Assembly: GCA_964016885.1 (NCBI GenBank)
Contig: OZ024745.1
Span: 44,454,001 to 44,518,000, forward strand
Direction of reading: 5' to 3'
Length of the DNA stretch: 64,000 nt
Origin: Eledone cirrhosa
Lineage: Eukaryota
Position numbers and translations under genes: made by a program. This document shows positions 11,557 through 64,000 of this stretch, one piece after another. The notes beneath the pieces were generated by a model. That model worked only from the letters and a program-made list of their open reading frames with translations, ran no database searches and was not told the origin of the DNA. Position 1 is the first letter of the stretch; each line of letters starts with the position of its first letter.

Positions 11557-11756
11557 NNNNNNNNNNNNNNNNNNNNNNNNNNNNNNNNNNNNNNNNNNNN
11601 NNNNNNNNNNNNNNNNNNNNNNNNNNNNNNNNNNNNNNNNNNNNNNNNNNNNNNNNNNNNNNNNNNNNNNNNNNNNNNNNNNNNNNNNNNNNNNNNNNNN
11701 NNNNNNNNNNNNNNNNNNNNNNNNNNNNNNNNNNNNNNNNNNNNNNNNNNNNNNNN
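11557..11756. other. Assembly gap (200 N)
   Basis: Run of N. Confidence 1.
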
Positions 11757-20382: not shown

Positions 20383-20973
20383 TTACTTTTCTGTTAAAGG
20401 TACATTTTCATCCAAATCTTCCTCACATTCATTTGTATGTACATTTGTTTTTGAATCTTTATCATCTGCAACTTCTTCCTCTTCTTTATGAGCAGCTTCT
20501 TCACTATCTTTTGTATCTTCATCTGCATCATCACTACCATATGTTTTATGTTCAGTTTCATTAATGCCTACAACTATAACGTTTTCTCCATTTTCTTCTT
20601 CATTTTCTATATTTTCTATATCTTCTAGAGCTTTTTCTATATCTGCTTCAAAAGCTTTTTCTATATCTTCTTCAGGCACACTTTCTATATCTGCTTCGAC
20701 AGTTTTTCTTATAACTTCTTCAGGCACTTTTTCTATATCTGCTCCAAGAGCTTTTTCTATATCCTCTTCTTGAAATGTTTTTCTATGTTCTTTTGCATCT
20801 TTTCCAGTATCTATTTCTGTAGAGTTTTCATCAACTTCTATTTTTTCCTTTTTTTCCTCTTTGATTTCCTTCTTCTTATTGTCTTCATCCTTGTTAATTT
20901 TTAGCATGTCTTTTAAATTAAATTTCTCCACTATTGCTTTTTTAACACAATTATTAATTAAGATATACTGGTC
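20383..20973 (-). CDS. RPTP last identified exon: end of PTP domain (DQYILINNCV) plus Glu/Asp-rich repetitive tail
   Basis: ttttag acceptor at 20975-20974. QY motif follows MVQNV. Open to TAA at 20385-20383, which overlaps a possible aa|gtaaga donor. Confidence 0.82.
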   Translation of the reverse strand, partial: DQYILINNCVKKAIVEKFNLKDMLKINKDEDNKKKEIKEEKKEKIEVDENSTEIDTGKDAKEHRKTFQEEDIEKALGADIEKVPEEVIRKTVEADIESVPEEDIEKAFEADIEKALEDIENIENEEENGENVIVVGINETEHKTYGSDDADEDTKDSEEAAHKEEEEVADDKDSKTNVHTNECEEDLDENVPLTEK

Positions 20974-22087: not shown

Positions 22088-22205
22088 CTGAAATTGTATA
22101 ATTTGAAGAAATAAGGAGAAAATAATGCATATTTCTATGAAGATATTAGTATTATATAGTGTTATAGTAGAAATACATAACTACTGGGTTATCAAGAATA
22201 AACAA

Positions 22206-25788: not shown

Positions 25789-25827
<39 letters not shown>
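25181..25827 (+). mobile_element. Tx1 3'-end fragment
   Basis: ORF2 C-terminus (25206-25547), 3' UTR, aataaagaaaac(att)n. Confidence 0.9.
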
Positions 25828-26053
25828 GGCCGCACATGTGTGAAGACAGTACAAATCTGCGGGGGAAAAGGTTCGTAACTTTAAGCTGTTTTAAAGTGTC
25901 TTTTTTTTGTATTTTCTTGTCATTAACGAAACTTAAGGTACACATCTTGATTTAAAGAGAGGGATACCTCTCAATATTCGGGCTTTAAGCCCAAATATTC
26001 AAATTCATTTTTAAAAACTTCGAAAAAAATCGCTTCCCCACCAAAAGAAAATT

Positions 26054-27787
26054 ATGGAAATTTTCGACCTTGAAACGGTAAACAACGTTCAGGTCAAAAG
26101 TTTAAAGGCAGCCACTGTAGATTTCACCACGGCTACGACGGCTACAGTCATGCCTGTCATCCACTCTACTGAATGTGAAGGCAAAACTCAAAAGCTACCA
26201 TCACAACCTTCTGCCATAGCAGCAGTATCATCTGAAAACGACATCACCATCACCGCCACCACCACCACCACAATAACAACAACTCAGAGCAATAACGACA
26301 ATAACACCTACAGCTTCAATGTAAACAAGGATGGCGGTGGCAACAGCAAGAATGACAACAACAACAATAAGAGCATCAGAAACACCACATTTGCGGCAGC
26401 AGCAGCAAAAACAAAGCGCTTATTGAATATTGATATTAGCGATAAAGACGAACAGTTGGCCAAAGCGTGGAGGCTAATTAAACGGGAGAAGTCCTGGGCA
26501 AACCTGACCATCCCGGACGGGGCAATAGCGGCCATGCAAAGGAGGATGGTGCTCTTTCGATGTATTTCGGTGCAGACACGAAAAGCGGAACTTGCGAGCC
26601 AAGCAGAGGTAGAGGCTGCTTTGGAGTACATCGGAAGTAACATAGAGTAAAAAGCAAGAGGCAAACAGTTCGGTACCATCTCGGTACTGTTCAAAACCGA
26701 GGCCCTCGCTATTAAGCACTCGGTGACCCCCTGCAGAACGGAACGCATTATCATGCATCCGTCCTATATGGGTAAAAGGACAGTGAAGGTACGCATTCCC
26801 AGCATCCCACCAGGAATGAACATATGGTGGCTGCTGGGATGCGTAATCGAGGAGGGGACAGACACTACCCTCCTGGACATCAAAAGGACAGAGAGAGAGG
26901 ACTGGTCCGGAATGGATTTGGAGATTCTTCTCCAAATTAAACCGGAGGATATGAATAACATCCCGGATTTTGCCCGCCTGCAGGACGGGACAACAATCCA
27001 ACTAATGATTGACAGAAGAAGGCCACGCTGCTTCGTCTGCGGGGAAGCAACGCATCTTCAAGCCTTCTGCCCTCAGTGCAAAAATGCAGGGTGTCACAAA
27101 CCTCCTTTGTTGCCAACGCCAGTGTCAGCACGGAAAGCTGCACCACCACCACCACCAAAAACATCATCAACAAAAACACAGACACCAACATCAAAAGCAG
27201 CCGGATCACCACCAACACCAAAACCAATCCAAGGAGAAAACGAAAGCTCTCCCACTCCCCCTACCCCCCCCCCAATTATACACATAGACAAAACAATAAA
27301 CGCACACACAGACACAGAGACACTCACAGCCACAGACCCTTTGTCTTCCAGCAGCGAAGATGAAGGAAAACCCAAAAGTGCAAAAAAACAGAGAAAACTC
27401 ACAAAAAAAAAGCCCCAACAAAACACAAAAACACACACAACAAAAAATACAGACACCACTAGCGCAAACACTTCCCCAATAACATCATCACCAACAGCAA
27501 CATCGACACCACCTCCACAATCCCCGAAACGCAAACAACCTAAACAAACACAAGTACAAATAAACACACAAATACCTGAAATTGCAGACACCACACCTAC
27601 AACAAACATAGACATACCCGAAACAACACCACCAAAACCATCGCCACCACCTTCACCAAAACGAAAACAAATAAAACCACACCAACAAAATGTTAAAAAC
27701 TTTGTGCTTGTCAGAAGGGCCAACGATAACCTGATGGCCCTCTTAGCGCGAAGCGAGGACATTCAAACAGAAGGGGAGATTTTTTAA
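26054..27787 (+). pseudogene. Tx1 ORF1 (gag-like; CCHC knuckle CFVCGEATHLQAFC; Pro/Thr/Lys-rich tail), one in-frame stop at 26648-26650
   Basis: ORFs 26054-26650 and 26723-27787 share a frame. TTFAAAAAK motif and a C-x2-C-x4-H-x4-C knuckle. Confidence 0.85.
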
Positions 27788-28024
27788 ATGAGCACATTTT
27801 GCGTGCCAGAAGATTTGCTTCTGGTCCGAATGTCACTCAATTCCTTCAAAGAAATTCGAGAGAGCTTTCCTCAAGACGTGGGAACCCCAAATGTGAAATC
27901 CACATCAAGACTTTGAAAGGGGTTCCCAAAAGAAACCCCACCAACCATGGAGGTCGAACCACCCGACCTTCACAAGACCCGGGAGGTAAGTAAACCTTCC
28001 CTCTCTCTCTCTTAGCTTACCAAT

Positions 28025-31000: not shown

Positions 31001-31417
31001 TGCCCAAGATGCGCACAGAACGACGAAACCGTTCTGCACGCACTTGTCCAATGTGCGTGCATTACTGACTTGTGGAGTTATGGCGAACAGCTACTGTCGC
31101 GTGTGGAACGAATCCGGCTATCGGCCGAGTCCATAGTGAAGATCAAGCCGCCACCTTCCTTAGGTCAGGAAGAGCAGGACATTTTCCTCTGTCTGGTGGC
31201 AGTTGCGAAAGAGATTATATGGTGGACCAGATTGAAAGGACTAAAGACAGACACTTTTCTCTTCGGCCAATCCCTCATCAACTTCTTCAAGTTTCACCTG
31301 GAAAGGAGGGTGAGGGTGGAGAGAGAAGTGCTGCCCCCCAGTACATTTGCTAAAAGGTGGGTGAATGTGGCGAGAATGGCTCGTGTGAATGGGCCTACTC
31401 TGACCATGCGCCTATAG
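28025..31417 (+). pseudogene. Tx1 ORF2 (APE endonuclease, RT, C-terminal zinc finger) with three in-frame stops
   Basis: SLNVRGL, AVSET, VYAP, AGDWN, SYIDRIF, SDH, YADD and CPRC..H..C. All four ORF pieces lie in one frame, with stops at 28559, 29201 and 30854. Confidence 0.95.
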
Positions 31418-31712
31418 GCTGGCTAACTTGAGGAGAGGGGTGCTCTCCCTGGGTGCCCTAGAAGCGCAGGGTGGTTCAGGATTGGTGGGGTACCCGAATC
31501 ACCCCAGGGTCGTCCACCCCCTATCGGGGAATTTATTTTGTTATATTTATGCATAGTTCATTTTATATTTTTATATTTTCATTGTTAAATTAGTCTTGCC
31601 ATTGTGCACTTTTACTCGACCTTATTGTAAACCCCCACTGTCCCTGTCTTTGTATTGTCCCCTACATGTCGGCCCTTGTGGCTAATAAATGAAATCATTA
31701 TTATTATTATTA

Positions 31713-36785: not shown

Positions 36786-39103
36786 ATCATCATCATCATC
36801 ATCAACGTTTAACGTCCGTGTTCCACGCTTGCATCGGTTTGGACGGGGGTTTTCCCACTTGAGGCAAGAGTGATTGTCTTGCTCGCATAGGACTGTCTGG
36901 CGGGTTTTCTACAACTGGATGCCCTTCCTAACGCCAACCACATTTACAGTGTGGGGCTGGGAGGTTTTTACCGTGTTGCCTACACAGCCACATTACAGCG
37001 TGGACTGTCTGGCGGGTTTTCTACAGCTGGATGCCCTTCCTAACACCAACCACATTTACAGTGTAGGGCTGGGAGGTTTTTACCGTGTTGCCTACACGGC
37101 CACATTACAGCGTGGACTGTGTGTTTTTTTGTCGTGACACCTACACGATCTCATTTGTTTCGGCCTGGATGTTGTGGCACCAACATAACTTTACAAGGGG
37201 GGGGGTGGATGGGGTGGGGGTGGTGGGACGGGGGTGTATTTTGTTAGAGATGCCTACTGACTGTAGTAGGTTTTACTTTGTATTTAGGTAAGGTGGGTCT
37301 TCTCTATTACTGAGTACCGCCAAAGGTCTCGGTCCAGTGACATTGTCTTGGAGAGGTGTAAGTGTGCGAGGTCGGAATTTATCAGCTCGTCCCAGGTTTT
37401 TCTGGGTCTGCCTACTCTGTGGCTACCGTCTATCTTTATTGCCCTGCACTTTGTTATACAGCTATCGTCTTTCATGCGCATCACGTGACCATACCAACGT
37501 AGCCTTCTCTCGAGTAAACAACATCTGATCCCTCTTATTTCTAATTTTTTCCTTAGTTCGTTTATGCTTTGTCGTTCACGTATATTACTATTACACATCC
37601 AGCGGAGCATGCAAGCTTCGTTCCTCTCTAGTCTGCGTATATCCTCTGCACACAATGCCCAGGTCTCACTGCCATGCAACATTGCTGTTCGTATGCAGGC
37701 ATCATACAACCTGCCTTTCATTTTTAGGGAGAACCCTTTAGCGGCTAATAGTGGTATAGGCTCTCTGAACTTTTTCCATCCAGTTCTGACTCTAGCTACT
37801 GTACTTTCAGAGCACCCGCCCCCACTGCTGATTTTGTCACCCAGGTAACGGAAGCTGTCCACTATTTCTATAGAACCCTCTGCGCAATTGAAAGAGCTAG
37901 TATTTTGTGGGCACTTGCTGCTACTTATTGCACCAGAGCACCGGCCACATGTAAAATCTATGTTCTTAGTTAGCTTACCTGTGATCCCACTACATCTTTT
38001 ATGCACCCATACTTTGCATTTGGGACATAAAATGGAGTTTCTACCTACGCCTTTCCTACACACTGAGCATGGCCACTTCCCGGAAGGGACCGCCGCCTTA
38101 TTTTCTTTCTTACAAACTAGAACTTTAGTCTTAGCCAGGTTAATTTTAAGGCCTTTTGATTCTAGGCCGTGCTTCCATGTTTGGAATTTCTTCTCTAGCT
38201 CGGCCATTGATTCAGCTATGAGTGTTAGGTCATCTGCGTATAGGAGTTCCCATGGGCAGCCGGTCTTGAACTCCTCTGTTATAGCCTGAAGGGCAATAAT
38301 AAATAGTAGGGGGCTAAGAACAGAGCCCTGATGGACACCAACTTTTACGCTAAACTCTTCACTATATTCGTTGTTAATTCTAACCTTGCTGACTGTTTCT
38401 TTATACATGGCTTGTATAGCTCTCACAAGCCATTCGTCAACACCTAGTTTTCTAAGAGCCCACCAGATAATGGAACGGGGGACTCTGTCGAAGGCTTTCT
38501 CCAAGTCGACAAAAGCTAAGTATAGGGGTTTACTTTTAGCTAGGTACTTCTCCTGTAGTTGTCGTACAATGAAAAGAGCGTCTGTGGTACTTTTGCCTGA
38601 CACAAACCCGAACTGCATTTCATCTAGATCAATTCTCTCTCTGATTAGTTGCGCTATTACTTTTTCTGTGACCTTCATGACCTGGTCGATTAATTTAATG
38701 CTTCTATACTTACTCCTATCTAGGGCATCTCCTTTACCCTTATAACAGTTAACGATAATGCTGCTACGCCAGTCCTTCGGAACAACCCCATTCTGTACGA
38801 CTTGGTTAACTATCTGGGTGACCATGGTGTGTCCCACCGTTCCAGATGCCTTCAGCATCTCAGCAACTATTTCCGAAGGCCCAGCCGTCTTACCCGTCTT
38901 CATATCTTTGATTGCCTTACTTATTATACTACCCTCGACTAACACTGCTGGTCCCTCTATTGGGTCGATGTGGGGGAGACTGTCTTTCTCCCATTTATTC
39001 TCCTCATTTAGTAGCCTTTCGCAGTGACACTTCCAAGCTACCTTCTTATCAGCGTCAGTGATGGCAAGTACGCCGTCATCATTAAGTACACACTTCTCCC
39101 CGG
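36786..39103 (-). mobile_element. Young 5'-truncated RTE-clade LINE
   Basis: Frame open from ~39100 to the stop at 37284. RT motifs FVDLEKAFD, GVHQGSVLSP and LYADD. 3' UTR has a ~110-bp internal duplication and a (GAT)n tail. Confidence 0.95.
37284..39100 (-). CDS. RTE reverse transcriptase (N-truncated) with embedded C4HC3 PHD-type finger
   Basis: The ORF-track 553 aa extends upstream without stops (GEKCVLNDDG...). Finger: CSVC..CPKC..H..C..CGRC. Confidence 0.85.
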
Positions 39104-39738
39104 AAGCTTGAAACTAGTACAGCGTTCCTTTGTCAGTGTTGAACAAAAGAGCAACGATGGTTGCTAAACACTGTACGGCTTAATTCGGGATGTTTGTTTA
39201 CAAACACACCGAGCATTATAATAAATGTTCGGTAAATCCATACGTACATATATGTATGTGTGCATGTATGTATATATATATACATACTACTGTACGTCGT
39301 ATACATATATGTATGTACGTATACATACTTATAATTAATTATTTCGTTACTAGGAAAGTAACATATGGTTCCTATTTAAAATTACGTTGGAAGACATTAA
39401 TTTAAAAAGATGATTGGGTTTGTTTCATAGAGCCAGAGGTGGTTTTGGGTGGCTAATTCTGGTAAAATAATAATAAAAAATAAAAACAGGCTGGCTAACA
39501 TATTTATTAAAATCTAGCTCTAATACATTTTCAAATATTAAGTGTCTGTGTTAAAATATATTATAAAACAGGAAATTTACCCTCCACTTCCTCCTTTATT
39601 ATAGTGAAGTTGTGTGGCCTAGTGGTTAAGATGCTGGTCTCACAATTGTAAGAAGAAGGAGGAGGAGGAGAAGAAGAAGAAGAAGAAGAAGAAGAAGATG
39701 TGATAAGGTTTTAAGCTATTACATAAGTATTTACATAC

Positions 39739-41507: not shown

Positions 41508-41568
41508 CTTATAATCTTGGATAAAAGTTTTTGATTCAATTTGTGCAAAATGCTTCATTTTGTAAGGT
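41508..41568 (-). CDS. RPTP juxtamembrane exon: (R)PYKMKHFAQIESKTFIQDYK
   Basis: ttttctacag acceptor, aag|gtatac donor. Phase 2 to 0 bridges its neighbours, and the peptide resembles the pre-PTP P...F.......F..EY segment. Confidence 0.8.
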
Positions 41569-42629
41569 CTGTAGAAAATTGAATATTCTTGTTAACAAAA
41601 AGAAGGTATTTAGGTCTAAATTAGATTTTAATTTTATGGATGATCCAAACTTCATATTTTATATGGCATTAGCCTTGCTTCTGCTTGAAACCTTAATCTT
41701 CAAAATTCACATCAAGTTTCATTCATCATCATTTTTATTTCCCGTTTCCTTACTGGCATGGATTGGATGGGTTGTCACAGTCCAATAACAGGGAGGTTGG
41801 AGCAACCAATCTTGCTTATACATTCCATATTTAGCATAGCTTCTACAGCTATATGCCTTAACTTAGAATGTGTGCTGGATGCATTTATCATGATACCAGC
41901 ACTACCACTTTTATTGTGGTACCAACACAAACACTTTACAGGGTGTAGTGGGTGCTTTTTATTGTGGCACAAACACTAGAGATGTTGTCATATGCCAGGC
42001 CAGACCCTAATCCTTTATAAACTAAATTTATATTTTCTTTTATAAGATTCCAAGGAAGCTTCATCAAACAATAAGCACAATACTTTCTTCAAGGAAAACC
42101 ACATATAATATTTTTTTATAATGAACAAATGTTATTTTAAGGAGCCTCAAATTATTTGATGGGTTAAATCTGTAGTAGTGGCTAATAGATCATAGATTCA
42201 ACAATGACACTTCTAATTAATGGTTCCAATCTTATATATCATACTATTTGTTTCTTAAGCTTTAGCAGGCTATAAATAAAACTCATTGTTTTTCAATTAT
42301 AATGTCAGAAGAAAGAACATGACTAAATTATCAAATAATGTTAGTATATTGATTTCTAAGGTCAACACAAGCCCCAGCACTTGACTGGTGTTTTAGTTTT
42401 TTCAAAGGTGGGATTTGAATTCAGAACGTAAAAAGCCAGAACAAATTTTACTTGGTGCTCTACCAATTCATCATTCATAGTGTTAGTATATTATTTAAAT
42501 GAAACAATGACTTCAAGTCAGATGGAAACAATTATTCAACTTATTTTAAAACATCAGCCTATATACAACAAATCACAAATTGGTGAATGATGCAAAAAGA
42601 AAAAAGAAAGCAAAAAGAAAGAAGCTAAC

Positions 42630-42689
42630 CTTTCATTTGGTGGTGTTTTATAAGGTTTTAATTTCATAAACGAAACTTTTTTTGATGAC
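42630..42689 (-). CDS. RPTP juxtamembrane exon: (P)SSKKVSFMKLKPYKTPPNE
   Basis: tttttcag acceptor, ag|gttag donor. Phase 2 to 2. Basic residues follow the TM. Confidence 0.75.
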
Positions 42690-46461: not shown

Positions 46462-46552
46462 GGTTTTAACAGAGTGATACCTATATAAACGACGACTATT
46501 ATAAACAGAAGAACAGCGATGATAATTCCAAACCACAAATAAATAGAGTTTT
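46462..46552 (-). CDS. RPTP transmembrane exon: (K)NSIYLWFGIIIAVLLFIIVVVYIGITLLK(P)
   Basis: ~25-residue hydrophobic run. tttatag acceptor, gtaagt donor. Phase 1 to 2. Confidence 0.88.
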
Positions 46553-48066: not shown

Positions 48067-49665
48067 AGGCTAAACAACAACACCATTACCTAATTGTCCT
48101 ACTATAGGCTAAACAACAACACCATTACTTAATTGTCCTACTATAGGCTAAACAACAACACCATTACTTGGTTGTCCTACTATAGGCTAAACAACAACAC
48201 CATTACTTGGTTGTCCTACTATAGGCTAAACAACAACACCATTACTTGGTTGTCCTACTATAGGCTAAACAACAACACCATTACTTGGTTGTCCTACTAT
48301 ATGCTAAACACCACCACCATTACTTGGTTGTCCTACTATAGGCTAAACACCACCACCATTACTTGGTTGTCCTACTATAGGCTAAACAAAAACACTATTA
48401 CTTGGTTGTCCTACTATAGGCTAAACAACAACACCATTACTTAATTGTCCTACTATAGGCTAAACAACAACACCATTACTTAATTGTCCTACTATAGGCT
48501 AAACAACAACACAATTACTTGGTTGTCCTACTATAGGCTAAACAACAACACCATTACTTGGTTGTCCTACTATAGGCTAAACAACAACACCATTACTTAA
48601 TTGTCTTACTATAGGCTAAACAACAACATTACTTGGTTGTCCTACTATAGGCTAAACAACAAAATTACTTGATTGTCCTACTCTAGGTTAAACAACAACA
48701 CCATTACTTGGTTGTCCTACTATAGGCTAAACAACAACACCATTACTTGGTTGTCCTACTATAGGCTAAACAACAACACCATTACTTGGTTGTCCTACTA
48801 TAGGCTAAACAACAACACCATTACTTAATTGTCCTACTATAGGCTAAACAACAACACCATTACCTAATCCTACTATAGGCTAAACAACAACATTACATGG
48901 TTGTGCTACTATAGGCTAAACAACAACACAATTACTTAATTGTCCTACTACAGTCTAAACAACAACACCATTATTTGGTTGTCCTACTATAGGCTAAACA
49001 ACAACACCATTACTTGGTTGTCCTACTATAGGCTAAACAACACCACCATTACTTGGTTGTCCTACTATAGGCTAAACAACACCATTACTTGGTTGTCCTA
49101 CTATAGGCTAAACAACAACATTACTTGGTTGTCCTTTTATAGGCTAAACAACATTACTTGGTTGTGCTACTATAGGCTAAACAACAACACCATTACTTAA
49201 TTGTCCTACTATAGTCTAAACAACAACACCATTATTTGGTTGTCCTACTATAGGCTAAACAACAACACCATTACTTGGTTGTCCTACTATAGGCTAAACA
49301 ACACCACCATTACTTGGTTGTCCTACTATAGGCTAAACAACAACACCATTACTTGATTGTGCTACTATAGGCTAAACAACACCACCATTACTTGGTTGTC
49401 CTACTATAGGCTAAAAAACAACACCATTACTTAATTGTCCTACTATAGTCTAAACAACAACACCATTACTTGGTTGTCCTACTATAGGCTAAACAACAAC
49501 ATTACTTGGTTGTCCTTTTATAGGCTAAACAACAACATTACTTGGTTGTCCTACTATAGGCTAAACAACAACACCATTACTTGGTTGTCCTACTATAGGC
49601 TAAACAACAACACCATTACTTGGTTGTGCTACTATAGGCTAAATGACACCATTATTTGGTTGTCT
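48067..49665. repeat. 39-bp minisatellite, ~41-42 copies (ctaaacaacaacaccattacttggttgtcctactatagg)
   Basis: Direct read. Occasional shorter units. Confidence 0.97.
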
Positions 49666-49886
49666 TGTCATACATTTTGATATTCATAACACAATGGTGG
49701 TGATGCATTTTTCATATAAGGGCACGCACACACACATATGCACATGCACATGGAGACACACACATACAGACACAGATGCATACATATACACACACATACA
49801 CATACGCATGCACACATGCACACACATGCACATACACACATACTCGTGTACACACACACACACACATGGTACAATATTTTACTTGC

Positions 49887-50009
49887 TTTCAGTACATTGG
49901 TTTTCTTCCATCTCATAGTCCTCGTTACAAGTACATATTTTCCCTTCACAAAAAGCATTATCATCTCTACAAATGTCATCACCAGAGCATTCTGTACCAA
50001 GAAGCTTCT
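49887..50009 (-). CDS. RPTP Cys-rich module B, copy 1: KLLGTECSGDDICRDDNAFCEGKICTCNEDYEMEENQCTE
   Basis: 6-Cys EB-like spacing with CxC. 123 nt, phase 1-1, requires an aa|GCAAGT donor. Confidence 0.82.
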
Positions 50010-51321
50010 CTGAAAAAGATAAATGTGAAATATATTGGTTAGTTGACATCATTGTCATCATTTTATGACTACTATTTATGCTGACATGATTTGGACAGGT
50101 AGTCATAATTTGAGACAAGATGGTTCAGATATCATGCTTTTCTCATATGTTAATATTTTCGTTTGATTTCTATGGGTGGATACCCTTCTTAATGACAACC
50201 ACTTTACAGAGTGTACTGGGTCAATTTTCTCATAACACCAGCACTACCAATTTACAGAGTATACTGGAAAGATTTTCTCATAGCACCAGCACTACCACTT
50301 TGGTGTGTAGTGGGTGTATTTTATTATGGCACCATGACTGGCACTATACAGAGTGTATTTGGTAAACTTTATCATGGCCCAGCACTAGAGAGATAGACAT
50401 GTACTCAGCAAGCCTGAAGAGTTTTCTCTACCCTGTGTTATCTCTGATTGCAAACAACTTTTAAAATGTACTGGATGCATTTTATTTTGGCACCAATACT
50501 AAAGAGTTTGTCAGATCTTTAAATGTTTGTTGAAATTGAATAGTAAATGTCATAACATTAGCTTTCCTTATTTAAAGTAAGCAACTGATCATTATATCAA
50601 CTTGATTATATAAGTCAAAATAAAAAGAATCAGTATTTTGTGAAAACAACTAGAAGTAATCTATATAGCCTTTCAAGTTGTTGTGCACAAAGAATGCAAC
50701 AGGAATTCTTGCAAATTGATAGGTAAACTGAGCAAAGTACATAAAAGATACTGATATAAATATCTACATAAGCAGTGATTAGATGAACACCTGGCATCAT
50801 CACGCCTCTTAAATCTCACTCATTATCAATATCACCATCATCATTATCATTATCATGATCATAATCATTTTAATGCATATTTTACAATGCTAACTTTAGT
50901 TGATCAGGTCAGCAAAGCAAATCACTTTTTGTGGTTTGATCCTGTGACATCTCATTAACTTTCTCATGACAGACATAACAACTTTTTAAATCTTTCCTTA
51001 ATTTGTAATGAGGGCAACTATATGTAGAACTGTGTGTGCCTTTAACTACTTCCTTTTCTTAGCAATGATCAAAGATTAATGTTGTTTTTGAATAGCTAGT
51101 TGGCTGTGGAATACATCTTAACCCTTTAGCATTCATATTACTCTATATTTACTATTAGTTAACCTCGGCGGGATTTGAACTCAGTCTGTAAAGGGACGTA
51201 ACTGTGCTGCAAAGCATGGCGTCCGACCCTCTACCGATACTGCCAATCCACCGCCCTATATAATAATATATATATAATGAAAATTATTGTGTACAGTGTT
51301 CAGGTACACTACTGTGCTTAC

Positions 51322-51447
51322 TTTTTGCACATTTGTTGTCTTTGATAAAATACTCATCAAAACAAATACATTTCTTCTCTTTTGATTGTGGGCAGTATGC
51401 GTTTTTGGGGAGACATTCATTATGACATGGTTCATTTAAACCTGGCT
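51322..51447 (-). CDS. RPTP Cys-rich module A, copy 1: PGLNEPCHNECLPKNAYCPQSKEKKCICFDEYFIKDNKCAK
   Basis: 6 Cys. 126 nt, phase 1-1. tttcag acceptor, gtaagc donor. Confidence 0.87.
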
Positions 51448-51525
51448 CTGAAAGAAATATTAGGAAAATCAAATTAAAGAAATTGAATGATATTTTGTAT
51501 ATTTAAGGAAGGATATTGTTACATT

Positions 51526-52450
51526 TAAGGAATGATATTTTTATAATTGAAGAATGATATTTTGTATACTTGAAGAATGATATTTTGTATACTTGAAGAA
51601 TGATATTTGTATACTTGAAGAATGATATTTTGTATACTTGAAGAATGATATTTTGTATACTTGAAGAATGATATTTGTATACTTGAAGAATGATATTTTG
51701 TATACTTGAAGAATGATATTTTGTATACTTGAAGAATGATATTTGTATACTTGAAGAATGATATTTTGTATACTTGAAGAATGATATTTTGTATACTTGA
51801 AGAATGATATTTGTATACTTGAAGAATGATATTTTGTACACTTGAAGAATGATATTTTGTACACTTGAAGAATGATATTTTGTACACTTGAAGAATGATA
51901 TTTTGTATACTTGAAGAATGATATTTTGTACACTTGAAGAATGATATTTTGTATACTTGAAGAATGATATTTGTATACTTGAAGAATGATATTTTGTACA
52001 CTTGAAGAATGATATTTTGTATACTTGAAGAATGATATTTGTATACTTGAAGAATGATATTTTGTACACTTGAAGAATGATATTTTGTATACTTGAAGAA
52101 TGATATTTGTACACTTGAAGAATGATATTTTGCATACTTGAAGAATGATATTTGTATACTTGAAGAATGATATTTTGTATACTTGAAGAATGATATTTTG
52201 TACACTTGAAGAATGATATTTTGTATACTTGAAGAATGATATTTGTATACTTGAAGAATGATATTTTGTATACTTGAAGAATGATATTTTGTACACTTGA
52301 AGAATGATATTTTGTATACTTGAAGAATGATATTTGTATACTTGAAGAATGATATTTGTATACTTGAAGAATGATATTTGTATACTTGAAGAATGATATT
52401 TTTACACTTTAGGAATGATATTTTTTACAATTTGAAGAATGATATTTTTA
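51526..52450. repeat. 22/23-bp minisatellite, ~41 copies (ttgaagaatgatattttgtatac)
   Basis: Direct read. The paralogous array at 57592-57790 has ~9 copies. Confidence 0.97.
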
Positions 52451-52457
52451 CAATAAA

Positions 52458-54356
52458 GGGATCTCCTTGTTAAGTCTCCCCGGTAAACTCTATGCTTAGT
52501 GTCTGGTAAAGAGATGCAGAGAGATTGTCGAGTTCAAGCTAGCTGATGAGCAGTGTGGTTTTTGTCCCGGACGCAGCATAGCCAACCAAATATTTACACT
52601 GCGGCAGGTCTTTGAGAAATCATGGGAATATTGCCAAGAGGTATATTCTTGTTTTGTAGACCTTGAAAAGTCATATGACCATGTTCCTCAGGATTTACTG
52701 TGGAAGGTTCTGCAGGAGTATGGGACCGATGGTTAGCTTCTTGTTGCCCTGATGTCTCTATAAGAATGCCTGAGTATTTGTGTTCGAATAAATGGTGCTA
52801 AATCAAAACTATTCAATGTGTGAGTCAGACTCCACCAAGGGTGTATACCTCTCCTGTTCCTTATTTTCATGAACAGGATTGACCTGCCAGTTGGGTTGGA
52901 AGTGGTATCCCGATTGACAGATGTAAACTCAGTCGACTGGAGTTTTCAGACAATATGGTGTTATTTAACTTGACAGAAGGGGATCTCCGACTTGCACTAG
53001 ATAGGTTTAATATTGAGTGTTGCATGGCTGGAATGAAAATCAGTGCTGTAAAAACTGAGACACTTATCCTCTCAAGGAAGCCTGTACAGTGACTCTACAT
53101 GTGAATGGAGTTCCACTGAAGCAGGTGGAGAAGTTCAAGTATTTCCAGGCTATGTTCACGAGTGGTGGAAAGCGGGAGACTGAATTATGTGCAAGAATTG
53201 CAGGAGCTGGTGTAGTAATGTGCCAGCTTCAGCATTCGGTCATCAGAAAGGAGGAAGGTGTAAAAGCCAAACTTGCTATCTTCAATTCGGTATTCATGCC
53301 AACCATTACATCAATCTTCGGTAATGTCTGAAAGAATATGATCATGAATACAAGGGGCCGAAATGGGGTTCCAACAAAGAGTCTTTGGAGTAACATTACT
53401 TGATAGTGTGCATAGTTCAGAGATCAGAGAGTAATATTACTTGATAGTGTGCATAGCTCAGAGATCAGAGAGTAATATTACTTGATAGTGTGCATAGCTC
53501 AGAGATCAGAGAGTAATATTACTTGATAGTGTGCATAGCTCAGAGATCAGAGAGTAATATTACTTGATAGTGTGCATAGCTCAGAGATCAGAGAGTAATA
53601 TTACTTGATAGTGTGCATAGCTCAGAGATCAGAGAGTAATATTACTTGATAGTGTGCATAGCTCAGAGATCAGAGAGTAATATTACTTGATAGTGTGCAT
53701 AGCTCAGAGATCAGAGAGTAATATTACTTGATAGTGTGCATAGCTCAGAGATCAGAGAGTAATATTACTTGATAGTGTGCATAGCTCAGAGATCAGAGAG
53801 TAATATTACTTGATAGTGTGCATAGCTCAGAGATCAGAGAGTAATATTACTTGATAGTGTGCATAGCTCAGAGATCAGAGAGTAATATTACTTGATAGTG
53901 TGCATAGCTCAGAGATCAGAGAGTAATATTACTTGATAGTGTGCATAGCTCAGAGATCAGAGAGTAATATTACTTGATAGTGTGCATAGCTCAGAGATCA
54001 GAGAGTAATATTACTTGATAGTGTGCATAGCTCAGAGATCAGAGAGTAATATTACTTGATAGTGTGCATAGCTCAGAGATCAGAGAGTAATATTACTTGA
54101 TAGTGTGCATAGCTCAGAGATCAGAGAGTCACTCCAGGTAGAGCCGCTACTTCTCCAAATTGAGAGACCACGGCTCCAATACTATGTTGTTAGAATGTCT
54201 CAGGAAAGAATTGCTTGACAGATTTTACAGACAAAAGCAACAGGTAAGAGACCCAAGGGCAGACACTGAGCAACATGGATAACATCCATGAACTTGACTG
54301 GTCATGCTTGGGTGCCCAGCCAGATCAGTTGGAGACGGAAGGAGTGTTTGAAGACT
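52458..54356 (+). mobile_element. Decayed RTE LINE 3' half (duplicated copy 1)
   Basis: EQCGF, FVDLEKSYD, HQG and QVEKFKYF. Interrupted by the 41-bp array. Confidence 0.85.
53390..54127. repeat. 41-bp minisatellite, 18 copies (gtaatattacttgatagtgtgcatagctcagagatcagaga)
   Basis: Direct read. Single copy in the paralog at ~59235-59275. Confidence 0.97.
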
Positions 54357-54451
54357 TTGTCAAATCTTTAAATGTTTGTTGAAATGGTATAGTAAAAACC
54401 ACATACACATACTCGTGTACGCACACACACATGGTACAATATTTTACTTGC

Positions 54452-54574
54452 TTTCAGTACATTGGTTTCCTTCCATCTCATAGTCCTCTTTACAAGTACA
54501 TATTTTCTCATCACAAAAAGCATTATCATCTCTACAAATGTCATCACCAGAGCATTCTCTACCAAGAAGCTTCT
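54452..54574 (-). CDS. RPTP Cys-rich module B, copy 2: KLLGRECSGDDICRDDNAFCDEKICTCKEDYEMEGNQCTE
   Basis: Paralog of 49887-50009, with the same GC donor. Confidence 0.82.
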
Positions 54575-55682
54575 CTGAAAAAGATAAATGTGAAATATAT
54601 TGGTTAGTTGACATCATTGTCATCATTTTATGACTACTATTTATGCTGACATGATTTGGACAGGTAGTCATAATTTGAGACAAGATGGTTCAGATATCAT
54701 GCTTTTCTCATATGTTAATATTTTCGTTTGATTTCTATGGGTGGATACCCTTCTTAATGACAACCACTTTACAGAGTGTACTGGGTCAATTTTCTCATAA
54801 CACCAGCACTACCAATTTACAGAGTATACTGGAAAGATTTTCTCATAGCACCAGCACTACCACTTTAGTGTGTAGTGGGTGTATTTTATTATGGCACCAT
54901 GACTGGCACTATACAGAGTGTATTTGGTGAACTTTATCATGGCCCAGCACTAGAGAGATAGACATGTACTCAGCAAGCCTGAAGAGTTTTCTCTACCCTG
55001 TGTTATCTCTGATTGCAAACAACTTTTAAAATGTACTGGATGCATTTTATTTTGGCACCAATACTAAAGAGTTTGTCAGATCTTTAAATGTTTGTTGAAA
55101 TTGAATAGTAAATGTCATAACATTAGCTTTCCTTATTTAAAGTAAGCAACTGATCATTATATCAACTTGATTATATAAGTCAAAATAAAAAGAATCAGTA
55201 TTTTGTGAAAACAACTAGAAGTAATCTATATAGCCTTTCAAGTTGTTGTGCACAAAGAATGCAACAGGAATTCTTGCAAATTGATAGGTAAACTGAGCAA
55301 AGTACATAAAAGATACTGATATAAATATCTACATAAGCAGTGATTAGATGAACACCTGGCATCATCACGCCTCTTAAATCTCACTCATTATCAATATCAC
55401 CATCATCATTATCATTATCATGATCATAATCATTTTAATGCATATTTTACAATGCTAACTTTAGTTGATCAGGTCAACAAAGCAAATCACTTTTTGTGGT
55501 TTGATCCTGTGACATCTCATTAACTTTCTCATGACAGACATAACAACTTTTTAAATCTTTCCTTAATTTGTAATGAGGGCAACTATATGTAGAACTGTGT
55601 GTGCCTTTAACTACTTCCTTTTCTTAGCAATGATCAAAGATTAATGTTGTTTTTGAATAGCTAGTTGGCTGTGGAATACATC

Positions 55683-57102
55683 TTAACCCTTTAGCATTCA
55701 TATTACTCTATATCTATATATTAATTTCAACAACGTCAGTATTCCGTGTGTCATAATTCTCGATTATCATTGGTTCATAGGTTTCAAACGACTCCGCCCA
55801 CCTCAACGACGCCAAACTTAAATTAATACGCATAATGCCAATGAGGGAGTGAGAGGGGAGAGTAAGAAACAGAGAGGCAAAGTGAACGCTGTAACTATTA
55901 CCATGTGTGCATGTGTATGTACGTGCGCATATGTTTATGTGTGTGTGCATGTGTGCAGCATTCCACAGAAAGTAAAAACTATCAACATGTGTGAGTGTGT
56001 AAGTGTGTGTAAGTGCGCGGGTGCATGTGTAAGTTTGTGTGCGTGTGCGCATTTCCATGCGTGTATGTGTGTGTACATGTGGCGTTCCACAATCGCCATG
56101 CAGTTTATCTGTCTGTGTGCCTGTCTGTCAGTCTAACATACACAGAGTTGTGAAGGGAGTAAATAGGGATCTTTTTTTTACATTGACGGACATCTTTTAT
56201 ATTTATTAGTGTGTCATTTTTGGACAATTGCTCGAAATGAATACTGATAATAAAAGCAATTCGACTTTATCAAACAGTGAACTACAGCGGCGACAGCGTG
56301 CAGCCAGGAATGGATAAAAAAGGGCCAAACAGCACCATCGGAATGCCGAACTTCAGAGGCGAAGACATGCCGCCATGAATGAAGAGGAGCTGGCTGAACA
56401 ACGCCAACGAAACACTGGAACCAAGCAGTGACGGCGTGCTGCGATGGTTGAAGACAAACTGGCCAAGCATCATCTTTTATATTAATTATCTATATCTATA
56501 TTTGTCCCCTTCTTTTGTGCCCCTGTGGCTAATAAAGAAATATATCTATATCTATATTTACATATAATATAAAAGATTGGAACTTCCATCATCCTTTTGA
56601 GAAACGTGGAACAACCACGTCTATGCAATGATACACGATTTACAGTCAGGCAGAAGATGAACCATCTCCTAGAGGTCACTATTCTAGGTGGGAGCACCTA
56701 GCATTGTTCATATACTATGCACAAATGGTACAACGAAGTATCTGGTATATCTGGAAGATTTTTTTTACTGTTCTTTGAATCACACAGACACCACGGACTT
56801 GCCTCATACTGTAACCAGACAAACATCCAATACAGTCATTTTCTCTTTTACCTGTCTTCTCTTATCATCTGTTTATCCGAGCGAAGCTGGGTACGTCAGC
56901 TAGTTTACTATTACATTTTCAAAGTAAACACTTTACCCCACATAATTATCTTACATAATATCTAATCAATGAGATTTTGATATTATTTATTTTGAGAATG
57001 ATACCTTAACATCAGTGTGAGCAGCTGGTTTTAATCAGTTTGAACAGAAAGAGGTGAGAGAATTCTGGCCAGATATGGCTGGTTTAAATGCTAAAGGGTT
57101 AA
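55683..57102. mobile_element. piggyBac-like MITE interrupted by a Helitron
   Basis: ttaaccctttagcatt ... aatgctaaagggttaa. The internal sequence matches 40037-40268 once 55713-56903 is removed. Confidence 0.8.
55713..56903 (+). mobile_element. Non-autonomous Helitron (~1.19 kb)
   Basis: 5' TC and 3' CTAG. Subterminal hairpin ccgagc-gaa-gctggg at 56877-56891. Inserted between A and T with no TSD. Empty site at 51147/51148. Confidence 0.88.
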
Positions 57103-57386
57103 ATATGTTCTCCCTTTTGGATTCAAGTTAAAACAATGAGTTGGTGGGAAGATAATTCAAAGTTAAAACTATACTCAAAATATAAAAAAATATAATTGTT
57201 TCTACTTTTGGCACAAGGCCAGCAATTACCCAGTGCATTACTGGTACTTTATTTTATCGACCCCGTAAGGATGAAAGGCAAAGTAAACCTTGGCGGGATT
57301 TGAACTCAGACCAATAATAATATATAATAATATATATATAATGAAAATTATTGTGTACGGTGTTCAGGTACACTACCTGTGCTTAC

Positions 57387-57515
57387 TTTCTACACATATG
57401 TTGTCTTTGATAAAATACTCATCTAAACAAATACATTTCTCCTCTTCTGATGGGCAGTATGCGTTTTTGTCGAGACAATCACCATAAATATGACATGGTT
57501 CATTTAAACCTGGCT
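57387..57515 (-). CDS. RPTP Cys-rich module A, copy 2: PGLNEPCHIYGDCLDKNAYCPSEEEKCICLDEYFIKDNICVE
   Basis: Paralog of 51322-51447. 129 nt, phase 1-1, canonical splice sites. Confidence 0.87.
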
Positions 57516-57797
57516 CTGAAAGAAATATTAGGAAAATCAAATTAAAGAAATTGAATAATATTTTGTATATTTAAGGAAGGATATTGTTACACTTAAGGAA
57601 TGATATTTTTATAATTGAAGAATGATATTTTGTATACTTGAAGAATGATATTTTGTATACTTGAAGAATGATATTTGTATAATTGAAGAATGATATTTGT
57701 ATACTTGAAGAATGATATTTGTATACTTGAAGAATGATATTTGTATACTTTAGGAATGATTTTTTTACAATTGAAGAATGATATTTTTACACTAAAA

Positions 57798-59550
57798 GGA
57801 TCTCCTTGTTAAGTCTCCCCAGTAAACTCTATGCTTAGTGTCTGGTAAAGAGATGCAGAAAAATTGTCGAGTTCAAGCTAGCTGATGAGCAGTGTGGTTT
57901 TTGCCCTAGACACAGCATAGCCAACCAAATATTTACACTGCGGCAGGTCTTTGAGAAATCGTGGGAATATTGCCAAGAGGTATATTCTTGTTTTGTAGAC
58001 CTTGAAAAGTCATATGACCATGTTCCTCAGTATTTACTGTGGAAGGTTCTGCACGAGTATGGGATTGCTGGTTAGCTTCTTGTTGCCCTGATGTCTCTAT
58101 ACGAATGCCTGAGTATTTGTGTTCGGATAAATGGTGCTAAATCAAAACCATTTGTAGCAAGCTACCTTTCCTGTGGCACAGGGATACATTCTCCGTACAT
58201 TGTTTGGTTCAGTTCAGCCAATCGCTAACAGCGTAGGGAAATGTATCTCGACTTCCACTCAGAGGGAAAAATTCCCGCTTCTTTCAAAAGACTCTCTCTC
58301 TCTTTGCATTGAGACTCCATCAAGGTAACACCTCTTGATTTTGCTCAACAAACTTTCCAAAATGTAGCAACCGGAATTCTCCGCGGCTTGGCTTCTTACT
58401 TCAGCCACCTGACCATGTCTAAATTTACAGCATCTTAATCTGTTTTATTTCATTTCTTATGACATGTCCTCACAGCTAACTCAACTTCTCATCTTTGTAA
58501 ATAAATTATATATATCAAAAAACGTTGTAATGCCTTATGATGATATTTGCCACAACATTCCCTTGGTCTGCTTCTTCAGTGACTTCTCTGTGATACAATA
58601 CACAAACAAATACGTACATTATCAACACACATATATACATATCTATATATCATCTAACTAACATCCAAAAATACTTATTTCTAAACATTCAATGTGGGAG
58701 TCTGACTCCACCAAGGGTGTATACCTCTCCTGTTCCTTATTTTCATGAACAGGATTGACCTGCTAGCTGGGTTGGAAGTGGTATCCCGACTGACAGATGT
58801 AAACTCAATCGACTAGAGTTTTCAGACAATATGGTGTTATTTAACTTGACAGAAGTATTGAGTGTTGCATGGCTGGAATGAAAATCAGTGCTGTAAAAAC
58901 TGAAACACTTATCCTCTCAAGGAAGCCTGTACAGTGACTCTACATGTGAATGGAGTTCCACTGAAGCAGGTGGAGAAGTTCAAGTATTTCCAGGCTATGT
59001 TCACGAGTGGTGGAAAGCGGGTGGCTGAATTAAATGCAAGAATTGCAGGAGCTGGTGCAGTAATGTGTCAGCTTCAGCATGCGGTCATCAGAAAGGAGGA
59101 AGGTGTAAAAGCCAAACTTGCTATCTTCAATTCGGTATTCATGCCAACCATTACATATAGGAATCAATCTTGGGTAATGACTGAAAGAATACGATCAAGC
59201 GGCCGAAATGGGGTTCCAACAAAGAGTCTTTGGAGTAACATTACTTGATAGTGTGCATAGCTCAGAGATCAGAGTCACTCCAGGTAGAGCCGCTACTTCT
59301 CCAAATTGAGAGACCACAGCTCCGATACTATGTTGTTAGAATGTCTCAGTAAAGAATTGCTTGACAGATTTTACAGACAAAACCAACAGGTAAGAGACCT
59401 AAGGGTAGACACCAAGCAAGATCGGTGGATAACATCCATGAACTTGGCTGGTCATGCTTGGGTACCCAGCCAGATCAGTTGGAGACGGAAGGAGTGTTTG
59501 AAGACTCTACCTCCACAACACCCCAGGAATAAGTAGGCCAAGAAGAAGAC
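57798..59550 (+). mobile_element. Decayed RTE LINE 3' half (duplicated copy 2), interrupted by a solo LTR
   Basis: Paralog of 52458-54356. Confidence 0.85.
58153..58685. mobile_element. Probable solo LTR (533 bp)
   Basis: Absent from the paralog (~52810). Begins TGTAG and ends CTAAA (CTACA-like). 4-bp TSD catt at 58149-58152 and 58686-58689. Internal aataaa. Confidence 0.65.
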
Positions 59551-59940: not shown

Positions 59941-60202
59941 TCTGAGTTGTGGGTATCTCTGAAGTAGGTGTTTCAGTTTCATCTGTACTTGATATATCAA
60001 GTCTGCTGCCTGAAGAAGTTCCTTCAGATGTGTCCACTGGTGAGGTTTGTTCATCAAACACTGTCACATTCTCAGAAGTGTTAACTGATGTTGTTACTTT
60101 ACTGAATAATGTTGTATATTCTGTCTCATTTTCAGGTGTTTTCAGTGTAGTTAAAATATCTAATGATGGCGAGGTACTGTTTTGATTTTCTGGCTGACCA
60201 TG
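59941..60202 (-). CDS. RPTP Ser/Thr-rich (mucin-like) ectodomain exon: HGQPENQNSTSPSLDILTT...ETETPTSEIPTTQ
   Basis: ttttctttag acceptor, a|gtatgg donor. 262 nt open, with N-x-S/T sequons (NST, NET, NTS, NVT). Ends in phase 1, matching module A. Confidence 0.75.
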
Positions 60203-60456: not shown

Positions 60457-62840
60457 GAATATCAAGCCGCTACCTGCAGCCTCAGATATTCAGGACATAT
60501 CGGAGGGTTCTTGCTGTTCCCAGCAAGCATGCATTTTGAAGTGTTCCAAAAAGCGGGGCTGGACTAACTTTCTTTAACCATCCTTGGAAACTCTTTGAGA
60601 TAGTACCTAGTGTGCCTATGACAATCGGGACGACTCTGACTTCATGGCAGTTCCAAATCCTTTTTACCTCCCACTTTAAGTCCTGGTATCGGTTAATTTT
60701 CTCCCTCTCCTTCTCTTGCACTCTCTTGTCAAATGGGCAGGCTACATCTACAATCAGGCACAATCTTTTTTCCTTGTTCAAAACCACCAGGTCAGGCCTA
60801 TTGTGTTCCAGTTTCTTGTCCGTCTGTATCCTAAAATCCCATAGCACCTTCACCTGATCATTTTCTATCACCGACTCTGGTTTATGCTCATACCACTTCT
60901 CAGAATGTGGTAAATTGTTTACTTTGCATAGGTGCCAGTGGATCACCCTGCCCATCACATCATGTCTCCAGCCTTTATAGTGAGTCTGGACTAGGTGGTT
61001 ACACTTGGATACAATGTGAGCCACAGTCTCCTCTCTCTCTCCACAGATCCTACACAGTGAGCTAGCCTCCTCCTTGTAAATATGGTGTTTCACTCACTTC
61101 GTTTTGAGTGCCTGCTCTTGCGCAGCCATTAGCATTCCTTCTGTAGCCTTTTTAAGGTCTCCTCTTTTTAACCAGTTCCATGTCTGTGGATCTCTAAATT
61201 CAGTTTTCTCAAAGAAGGTACTATGAAGGGATTTCTCATGAAGGTTGCTCTTCCTCCTTGTTGTTATTTCTTCCTTGGACATCCCCTGGTCTATTGTCCT
61301 GTCCTTCAGTACAGTTCTGAGCATTGGCTCCTTACTATCAGTCACGTATTTGTGCAGGTTGTTTTTCTCCATCTGAACATAGTCCTCTATGTGATAAGAC
61401 CTCTTCCACCTTCATATCTCTTTAAGTAGAGTCTATTGACATCACTCCTCTTGTGGAACATGTTGTAGATAGTCAATAGCTTCCTAGTCTTCCTATCCAT
61501 TTCTTTTTGTTCAGCAACATTCCATTTCAGAATTCCCGCACTGTACCTAATAATAGACACAGCTCGGGAATTCACTGCAATTATGACATTCCTACTATTT
61601 AGATGTGATTTTAATACGCTCCTTACTCTCCTAATGTACTCAGATCTTATCAATTCCTTCATTTTTTTGTTCTTGATGTCATCTGCCTCCAGAACACCTA
61701 AATATTTGTATCCTTCTTCAGTGTCAATTTCCTTTATCATCTCACCTGTTGGTACCTGGATTCCGTTGCTTCTGCTCAATTTACCCCTCTTCATCACCAG
61801 GACTCCACACTTGTTAATACCAAATTGCATACATATATCATTGCTGAAAATACGAACAGTGTCAACAAGCACATCCAACTCCTTGTCACTCTTCCCAAAG
61901 AGTTTAAGATCGTCCATGAAGAGGAGGTGGTTGATGGTAAGCTCTTCTTTTCCCAACTTGTATCCTGCTCTCACTTTTCGCAGTGTAATGGTCAGGGATA
62001 TCAGGGCAAGGACAAACAACAGAGGGGACAGACTATCTCCCTGGAAGATACCTCTCTTGATCTTCACGCCTCCCAAGGATTCTCCACCCGATGTTAATTC
62101 TGTTTCCCAGGACTTCATACTTTTGCTCAACAACTGTCTAATGTTATCTGCCACCCTGAAGATCTCTAGGCTTTTGGTTATCCAAGAATGAGGTACCATG
62201 TCAAATGCTTTTTTGTAGTCTATCCATCCCATGGCGAGACCAGTGTGTCTCCTCTTGCAATTCCTCATTACCATCTTATCAATAAGTAGCTGGTCTTTTG
62301 TACCACGGGACTTCTTTCGGCATCCTTTCTGTTTGTCCGGTAACAAGTTGTTTGTGTGGAGGTGATGGTAGATTTCCTCAGACACAATGCTTGTTAACAG
62401 TTTCCACATTACAGATAGACATGTGATAGGTCTATAGTTGGTAACATCATTACCCTTGATTCGGTCTTTCATTACCAGGACTGTGGTACCTTTTGTCAAC
62501 CACTCTGGTACCTCACTCGACATCAAGCAATCATTGAACATGGTTGCTAGTTTCGGGTGGAGGGATGTTATATTTTTAATCCAATACCCCTGCACACCAT
62601 CTGGGCCTGGTGATTTCCAGTTGGTTAGTTTTTTGGCCTGCCCTTTAAGAGTTTCAACTGTGATACTTAAATCAGTTTGTTGGTGTGCTTGTTCACTAAT
62701 CTCCTTTTGTACTGTCTCAATCCACACTGCCTGATCATTATGTTCAACATCCTGCTCCCATATTCCTCTCCAGAATGTCTTAGTCTGTTCTGCCTCAGGG
62801 ATCAAGTCGTTGCCTCTTTCTTTCCCTTCAAGCTGCCCAA
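60457..62840 (-). mobile_element. R4/Dong-like (REL endonuclease) non-LTR retrotransposon, 5'-truncated
   Basis: WKSPGPDG, NYRPITCL, IDYKKAFD, GIFQGDSLSP, LFMDD and EGGRGL. CCHC CRIC..ETVAHIVSKC, RHD, and PD..D..K REL motif. A few in-frame stops. Confidence 0.92.
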
Positions 62841-64000
62841 GTGGTGAGAGTAAACGGTCACCTTTCCGAACCGTTCAAGATCATGCGCTCGGTCCGCCAA
62901 GGATGTCCCCTCTTGCCCCTCTTGTATGTATTGACTCTCGAGCCATTACTGCACAAACTGGAGACGTTGAGGGGGGTCCCGCGTCAGCTAGGATGCGGAA
63001 GATTCGTGTCAGCATATGCGGATGATGTCACTGTAGTGGTGTCGAACGCCAAATACATCGAGGCGATCGGCACTACACTAAGAGAATACGAAGCGGTGAC
63101 AGGAGCAATGATCAACCAGGAAAAGTCGGTGGGCCTGCAGCTTGGCACCTGGAGAGGCAGGTCCATGCCGTCCAACGGCGTCGTCGGGCGCTGGACGGAC
63201 AGACCAGTTAAATTGCTAGGGGTCTGGTTCAGCCCGGACCTCCAGACGGACAAAAACTGGGACGAGGTGACGAGCAGGGTGGCTTCTCTCACCCAGAAAT
63301 GGGCGGAGAGAAAGCTATCCATGAAAGGTCGAGTGGAGGTGGCTAACGCGTACATCGTGTCCGTCATCTACTACCGCCTGACCCTCATGCCTTGTCCTAA
63401 GCCTCGCCTGACTGCGCTGGAGCGTTTGCTCTTTCGCTTTTTGTGGAAGGGACACGCTCCGATGGTCAAGCGGTCCATATGCTGTCAACACCTGCTACGT
63501 GGAGGGCTGGGCATGCCGTGGCTAATGATGCAGACACGCGCTCAGGCTACGACATCTCCACCTCTTCCTCGACGGTGATCAGGTGTGGTCGCCATTTGCT
63601 AGACGCGTCTTTCCCCAGCTCGTCTCCTTGACGGAGCTGCAGTCCTGGGTCAAGCGAAGACCGAGAGGGAGCGCCTGGAGACTGGAATGTCTTCAGGCGC
63701 TCACAGCCCTCGGCCAATTGGGCAATGTGATCGGTGGAAACTCCACCTTGTCGTTCTATAGAGGGTTAGTGGAGGGGAAGAGTGACAACGTACTTGGGGA
63801 AACTCTAGGCGTCGACGAAAATCAACTAGCCAATCTCTTGGGAAGGACTTTCGGGTCGGGGCCTATGGACAACTTCCACAAATCCCTGGCCTGGCAGTGC
63901 TACCGGGGAGCTTTGCCAGTTCGGGATAAACTCTACCGGCATGGAGGTGCCGTCAGCCGGGCATGTCCGAGATGCGCGCAGGGCGACGAAACCGTCCTGC
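62841..64000 (+). mobile_element. 5'-truncated Tx1 LINE, running off the window
   Basis: VRVNGHLSEPF..SVRQGCPL and YADD. Close relative of 22206-25180. Confidence 0.92.

Follow-up and report, generated by a model that had tools for sequence, protein, structure and literature searches.

A complete gene for a receptor protein tyrosine phosphatase (RPTP) is predicted on the minus strand of a 64,000-nt stretch of the Eledone cirrhosa genome (GCA_964016885.1, contig OZ024745.1, positions 44,454,001 to 44,518,000), referred to below as the window. Two kinds of cysteine-rich module, A and B, are each encoded by one predicted exon and occur twice in the extracellular part (A1-B1-A2-B2), following a tandem duplication of the exon pair. 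The divergence between the module copies and between octopod orthologues suggests, with a probability of roughly 70%, that the outer surface of this octopod RPTP is under recurrent positive selection, the lead reading being an arms race against a foreign ligand, for example a protein of a pathogen. Sequence comparison supports positive selection in two independent cases, on module A in the window and on the ectodomain of the orthologues, the latter being the stronger one. Little of the immune and recognition receptor repertoire of cephalopods has been mapped. As a single-copy receptor that joins a conserved enzyme to a fast-changing tip, the protein would be a candidate pathogen-facing or self-recognition protein and a candidate haemocyte marker. 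A single 10-kb stretch moreover combines exon duplication, probable intron homogenisation, exon divergence and a built-in neutral clock.

Divergence of the duplicated modules

By self-BLAST, the tandem duplication extends over about 49829-54356 versus 54400-59506. The 5' copy of the unit (54400..59506) contains an RTE retrotransposon, A1, an intron and B1 as well as copy-specific insertions, and the 3' copy (49829..54356) contains the RTE element, A2, the intron, B2 and two expanded minisatellites. A preliminary description of this DNA, based on hand alignment, had reported the duplicated two-exon Cys-module pair with ~10-11 substitutions plus two in-frame indels between the A copies, 5 substitutions between the B copies, exclusively nonsynonymous changes, invariant Cys residues and splice sites, and a divergence of module A (~8-9%) above that of the co-duplicated RTE. 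Each of these observations was reproduced. In the best alignment (123 aligned nt), 10 substitutions separate A1 from A2, compared to 11 in the second best, and the copies also differ by in-frame indels of 6 nt and 3 nt; between B1 and B2 there are 5 substitutions in 123 nt (4.1%). All 15 substitutions are nonsynonymous, with no change in the six Cys residues or at the splice sites. A1 retains the Cys spacing found in the last module of Octopus (5,6,6,1,10), so that A2 is the copy in which both indels probably occurred.

In the Fisher exact test that the preliminary description had proposed, the nonsynonymous divergence (dN) pooled over both modules exceeds the synonymous divergence (dS), with one-sided p values of 0.044, 0.021 and 0.008 for a kappa of 1, 2 and 4.75, respectively; the last kappa is derived from the transition:transversion count of 38:16 in non-coding DNA. 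Over the whole exon, module A diverges by 8.1%, about twice the value of the RTE copies (p = 0.044), which serve as neutral yardstick and differ at 48/1161 positions (4.1%). Its proportion of nonsynonymous differences (pN) of 0.11-0.12 compared to 0.041 in the RTE corresponds to a ratio of 2.75 (p = 0.004-0.007; confidence interval (CI), based on counts only, 1.3-5.1). The exon indels are in frame in two of two cases versus none of five in non-coding DNA (p = 0.048). The predicted net charge is -7 for A1 and +1 for A2.

The proposal of positive selection was thus upheld for module A but not for module B. The whole-exon divergence of module B equals that of the RTE (p = 0.59) and the corresponding ratio of 1.35 (CI 0.44-3.1) is not significant (p = 0.30-0.36), for which reason it was rejected as a sign of acceleration. 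The contrast between exon B and the adjacent intron (p = 4e-4) is attributed to conversion of the intron (see below). Besides the neutral rate of module B, further points weigh against selection in the window. The numbers of changes are low, and the choice of region was made post hoc. The probability of observing no synonymous change is 0.04-0.13 for A alone and 0.22-0.37 for B, and RTE windows of 123 nt reach up to 9 differences. An excess of charge-changing substitutions (9/14) is not significant (p = 0.125), and neither is the Cys invariance taken alone (p = 0.084), which was rejected as evidence. The A/B changes could not be polarised in a module tree, the window modules being 25-42% identical to all Octopus modules.

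Comparison of octopod orthologues

Orthologues were found in Argonauta and in three Octopus species, O. bimaculoides, O. sinensis and O. vulgaris, with synteny to SENP8 as supporting evidence. Isoforms with four modules (P0029, P0027 and P0001) were used for the alignment; the annotation also includes isoforms with 3 or 5 modules. Between O. sinensis and O. bimaculoides, residues differ at 78/165 positions in the modules, 29/81 in the N-terminal tip and 18/65 in the stalk, compared to 12/105 in the transmembrane and juxtamembrane regions, 14/234 in the protein tyrosine phosphatase (PTP) domain and 23/137 in the tail. A lower bound of dN was derived from the minimum number of base changes that the proteins require and amounts to 0.254 for the modules as a whole, modules 3-4 by themselves giving 0.223. 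It was set against a published genome-wide dS, a mean autosomal value of 0.123 (accessible part of PMC10925132). The modules lie at about twice this mean, the stalk and the tail at or below it. Neutral simulations expect 37 module differences at a divergence (d) of 0.123 and 55 at d = 0.2, and 0/300 reach the observed 78.

O. vulgaris and O. sinensis are 2.5 million years apart and their mitogenomes differ by ~3.2%, as stated in the part of PMC10700109 that was available; no nuclear divergence figure was found in the accessible part of PMC13093632. Between these sister species, residues differ at 23/85 positions in the tip, 13/165 in the modules, 1/71 in the stalk and 1/137 in the tail, and the PTP domain (0/234) and SENP8 (0/172) are identical. 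A minimum of 24 base changes in 255 nt is needed to explain the tip, more than neutral evolution yields even if d is set to 0.05 (0/300 simulations). Lineage-specific changes of the tip number 11 in O. sinensis and 2 in O. vulgaris. The sister species are as far apart in the tip (residues 19-105, P0029 vs P0027) as O. vulgaris and O. bimaculoides, which differ at 21/83 positions; either ancient alleles or a burst of change in O. sinensis may account for this.

The comparison across octopus species that the preliminary description had suggested thus yields a contrast at the protein level between modules and PTP domain, but no excess in modules 3-4 between the sister species (4/83). The latter result speaks against selection, as do three other points. 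Modules 1-2 account for 9 of the 13 module differences between these sister species, partly due to a chimeric module in O. vulgaris. At a local d of 0.3, 30% of the neutral simulations reach 78 differences, and the test rests on proteins and on a genome-wide, not local, dS.

The annotated number of modules is 4 in O. bimaculoides, 3-4 in O. sinensis isoforms, 3-5 in O. vulgaris isoforms and 0 in Argonauta. A more distant relative, P0148, has 4 modules without a stalk. Because module counts vary and O. vulgaris holds two copies that are 98% identical, duplication and homogenisation of modules appear to be recurrent in this gene. The Argonauta orthologue (P0005) has no Cys modules and instead carries a 9-residue tandem mucin repeat with many N-glycosylation sequons.

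Probable selection on the ectodomain and its alternatives

The likeliest reading, drawn by analogy, is that of a blood-cell threshold phosphatase engaged in an arms race. It is favoured because CD45 likewise combines a fast-changing surface with a conserved enzyme, and because of the RPTPs of the snail Biomphalaria. The enzyme would set the signalling threshold at cell contacts, and the ectodomain would act as spacer and target, analogous to CD45 and DEP-1. Since the module exons are symmetric (phase 1), modules could be added or dropped in frame, and selection would retain the disulphide scaffold while loops, charge and module number shift. An immune, allorecognition or gamete role, as put forward in the preliminary description, is suggested by analogy only.

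Alternatively, the modules may be spacers that need only their Cys scaffold and length and drift at dN ~ dS, the absence of synonymous changes being due to chance. Synonymous sites make up only 18-27%, so that 1.7-2.6 synonymous changes are expected at the RTE rate and none would be seen with a probability of 0.08-0.18. Relaxed constraint would also fit the neutral rate of module B and the replacement of the modules by a mucin repeat in Argonauta. Drift cannot exceed dS, however, yet module A reaches 2.75 times the RTE value, the orthologue modules lie at about twice the mean dS with stalk and tail at or below it, and the sister-species tip shows the number of base changes given above. We therefore regard this explanation as unlikely.

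Selection may also be real but driven by self/non-self or gamete recognition within species, not by pathogens; as far as selection itself is concerned, this overlaps with the arms-race reading. The gene is single-copy, and the sister species differ strongly in its tip, where lineage-specific changes number 11 in O. sinensis against 2 in O. vulgaris; old divergent alleles or change linked to speciation would be expected to leave such a pattern. The nearest documented cases among receptor phosphatases nevertheless involve pathogens, and a driver within the species is considered quite unlikely.

Beyond the arms race itself, a hypervariable blood-cell phosphatase resembling CD45 might have arisen independently in cephalopods, with an R3 phosphatase as its ancestor. 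In this scenario, shuffled EB modules would have taken the place of the FN3 repeats. Duplication, conversion and selection would reset the number and surface of these modules lineage by lineage, and the gene would carry old divergent alleles that serve pathogen or self/non-self recognition. We put this forward tentatively, as a possible but doubtful extension.

Age of the duplication and probable conversion of the intron

The dead RTE element of the 3' copy (52452..54356, plus strand; partner 57791-59506) provides the neutral depth of the duplication. The two RTE copies are each other's closest relatives, other copies being 81-84% identical. When 12 other RTE copies are used for comparison, 80 derived changes are common to the pair, and 18 and 25 are private to one or the other (5 uncalled). 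Their differences are evenly spread (max-run p = 0.26), with no clustering and no conversion signal. For these reasons, 4.1% is taken as a fair neutral depth.

The remainder of the unit diverges unevenly, with 3/168 differences in the flanks of exon A and 3/1139 in the A-B intron compared to 10/123 in exon A, 5/123 in exon B and 48/1161 in the RTE. The near-identity of the A-B intron (50010..51148 vs 54575-55713), absent from the preliminary description, deviates strongly from the RTE (p = 1e-11), and the unit contains an identity run of 547 nt that is matched in 0/5000 shuffles. Because the RTE gives a neutral depth of 4.1%, the intron was most likely homogenised by later gene conversion that spared the exons. 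The putative conversion tract lies between a large non-homology and exon B, where either selection or chance may have stopped it.

At the junction of the two copies (54351..54396), a 46-nt piece matches the mid-intron segments 50502-50547 and 55067-55112 with 4 mismatches. Because the junction carries this copy of mid-intron sequence, the two module exons were likely duplicated in tandem by template switching. The junction relic also bears on an older duplication (~8-9%), in which conversion would have partly homogenised everything but exon A and the latter would represent the true neutral age. Conversion was clearly active in the unit, as the 547-nt run indicates, and the relic differs at 4/46 positions. 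The even spread of the RTE differences does not fit such a history, and the CI of the relic (2-21%) includes 4%. If the true neutral depth were 8.7%, as in the relic, the lack of synonymous changes would itself be significant for the pooled modules (p = 0.012; 0.11 for A alone), and if it were 4.1%, the excess in module A would be (p = 0.004). An older duplication would also leave the orthologue data unexplained, and we consider it very unlikely.

That two haplotypes were set in tandem by the assembly is highly improbable given that the unit and its vicinity are free of assembly gaps (the window has a single N run, at 11557-11756), the junction contains a diverged templated piece, the copies are 4.1% apart with large private insertions and minisatellite expansions, and four modules are also found in O. 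bimaculoides, O. sinensis and P0148.

Two minisatellites are expanded in the 3' copy only. One at 53388-54129 consists of 18 units of 41 nt with 99% identity and has grown from RTE sequence; the other at 51485-52448 comprises 42 units of 23 nt.

Phosphatase class and related systems

The R3 receptor PTPs (PTP10D of Drosophila and the vertebrate PTPRB/VE-PTP, PTPRJ/DEP-1 and PTPRO) have one catalytic domain, as does the protein described here, and the orthologues show one Y_phosphatase stretch. The best single-domain PDB matches are PTP10D, PTPRB, PTPRJ and PTPRO (227, 221, 212 and 196 bits), higher total scores coming from two-domain proteins that match twice. In a quick tree of 25 chosen domains with open forks, the family joins the FN3-bearing single-domain proteins P0295 and P0008 (Shimodaira-Hasegawa-like approximate likelihood ratio test, SH-aLRT, 95). 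These scores and the tree tentatively suggest a catalytic domain that is R3-like (PTP10D/DEP-1), not CD45. R3 receptor PTPs carry FN3 repeats in the ectodomain, whereas the octopod protein has a mucin stalk and EB modules. No fn3 match was obtained in P0001, P0005 and P0148, and the window ectodomain exons are mucin and EB. One weak EB match is located at residues 108-143 of P0295, a possible intermediate architecture. A range restricted to octopods was rejected, since two-domain proteins head the search rankings and P0148 is more distantly related.

The octopod protein resembles CD45 (PTPRC, subfamily R1) in its glycosylated N-terminal stalk, Cys-rich region, conserved cytoplasmic part and ectodomain under apparent positive selection, which for CD45 is attributed to pathogen ligands (PMC4379584, accessible part). 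According to the same part of that source, CD45 has tandem D1-D2 PTP domains and three FN3 repeats, compared to one PTP domain and no FN3 repeat here. Abundance on blood cells is a feature by which CD45 is recognised. Databases label the Octopus orthologues 'phosphatase C', which is not proof of orthology to CD45; in view of the single PTP domain and the lack of FN3, orthology was rejected and the likeness is one of analogy.

In Biomphalaria, variable-ectodomain RPTPs map to parasite resistance. These SudRes1 MEGF/GBD RPTPs are likewise molluscan and show variable Cys-rich repeats and repeat gain and loss. In contrast to the single-copy octopod gene with one PTP domain, they belong to a cluster of paralogues and combine tandem PTP domains with a galactose-binding domain (PMC12297450, in the part available). 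CD45 and the snail RPTPs already show the general pattern, which makes the finding less surprising. What is new here is an R3-like phosphatase that, by its predicted sequence, carries EB modules in place of FN3 and evolves like CD45. No paper on this gene or architecture was found in a literature search that left subscription papers and supplements aside, and the main text of an Amphioctopus white-body paper, as far as accessible, mentions only PTPN11.

Gene architecture and genomic context

The predicted exon phases are continuous throughout the gene, in the order signal peptide, mucin, A1-B1-A2-B2, transmembrane, two juxtamembrane, six PTP and an acidic last exon, all on the minus strand. 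The signal-peptide exon is located ~9.6 kb past the window end. It is followed by a Ser/Thr-rich mucin-like stalk exon (59941..60202; 87 aa, phase 0 to 1) and by the four module exons, each of phase 1-1: A1 (57515-57387, 129 nt, six-Cys, EB-like), B1 (54574-54452, 123 nt), A2 (51447-51322, 126 nt) and B2 (50009-49887, 123 nt). Further downstream are the transmembrane exon (46462..46552, phase 1 to 2), the juxtamembrane exons (42689-42630 and 41568-41508, spanning 41508..42689), the PTP exons (39871-39739, 35609-35533, 34343-34209, 33911-33786, 32806-32664 and 22087-21943) and the last exon (20386..20973), which encodes the end of the PTP domain and an acidic tail. A non-canonical GC donor is required at both B exons (minus-strand donors 54452 and 49887) to keep the frame, giving predicted GC-AG introns; at both donors, use of a GT four bases downstream would shift the frame.

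The identification as a receptor phosphatase, made in the preliminary description, is corroborated by the catalytic exons, of which the four submitted to Pfam match Y_phosphatase, by the transmembrane exon and by intact catalytic motifs. The classical features include a signal peptide, one transmembrane helix and a PTP domain with what we take to be the pTyr loop, WPD loop, P-loop (HCSAGxGR) and Q loop. In the pTyr loop, Phe replaces Tyr, as in all Octopus orthologues. The EB profile (PF01683, cut-off 24.3 bits) matches three of the four modules, two of them at or above the cut-off: B1 with 27.3 bits, B2 with 24.3 bits and A1 with 19.7 bits, below it; A2 gave no match. Single modules align with profile positions 18-52 only; in full orthologues, four stretches match, giving 61.7 and 54.5 bits. 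With A1 as the sole query, a homologue search returned no matches, and all scores of an Atlas search were under 0.8. The AlphaFold model of P0029 is poor (mean predicted local distance difference test score, pLDDT, 36), and its weak fold matches (EGF-like Pfs25, Z 4.2, root-mean-square deviation 2.7 over 43 residues) were not used.

The gene is single-copy, the next genome match to a catalytic exon being 65% identical, and modules A and B each have only two copies in the whole genome, both located here. Other exons encoding EB modules are located elsewhere in the genome, three of them in a cluster on C2 (G000:C2:387182771-387201844), with a further location on C4 (C4:308412263-308412382). SENP8 is located upstream on the same strand, ~62-71 kb past the window end (G000:C5). 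The O. vulgaris model P0031 fuses SENP8 with the phosphatase, probably due to annotation read-through. The intron between B2 and the transmembrane exon contains a 39-nt minisatellite with 42 units (48067-49664). Other introns hold an open reading frame of 609 aa (37284-39113, minus strand) for a presumably RTE-like reverse transcriptase, and other remnants, which we take to be of non-LTR (long terminal repeat) retrotransposons, are found at 22100-31420 and 61387-64000.

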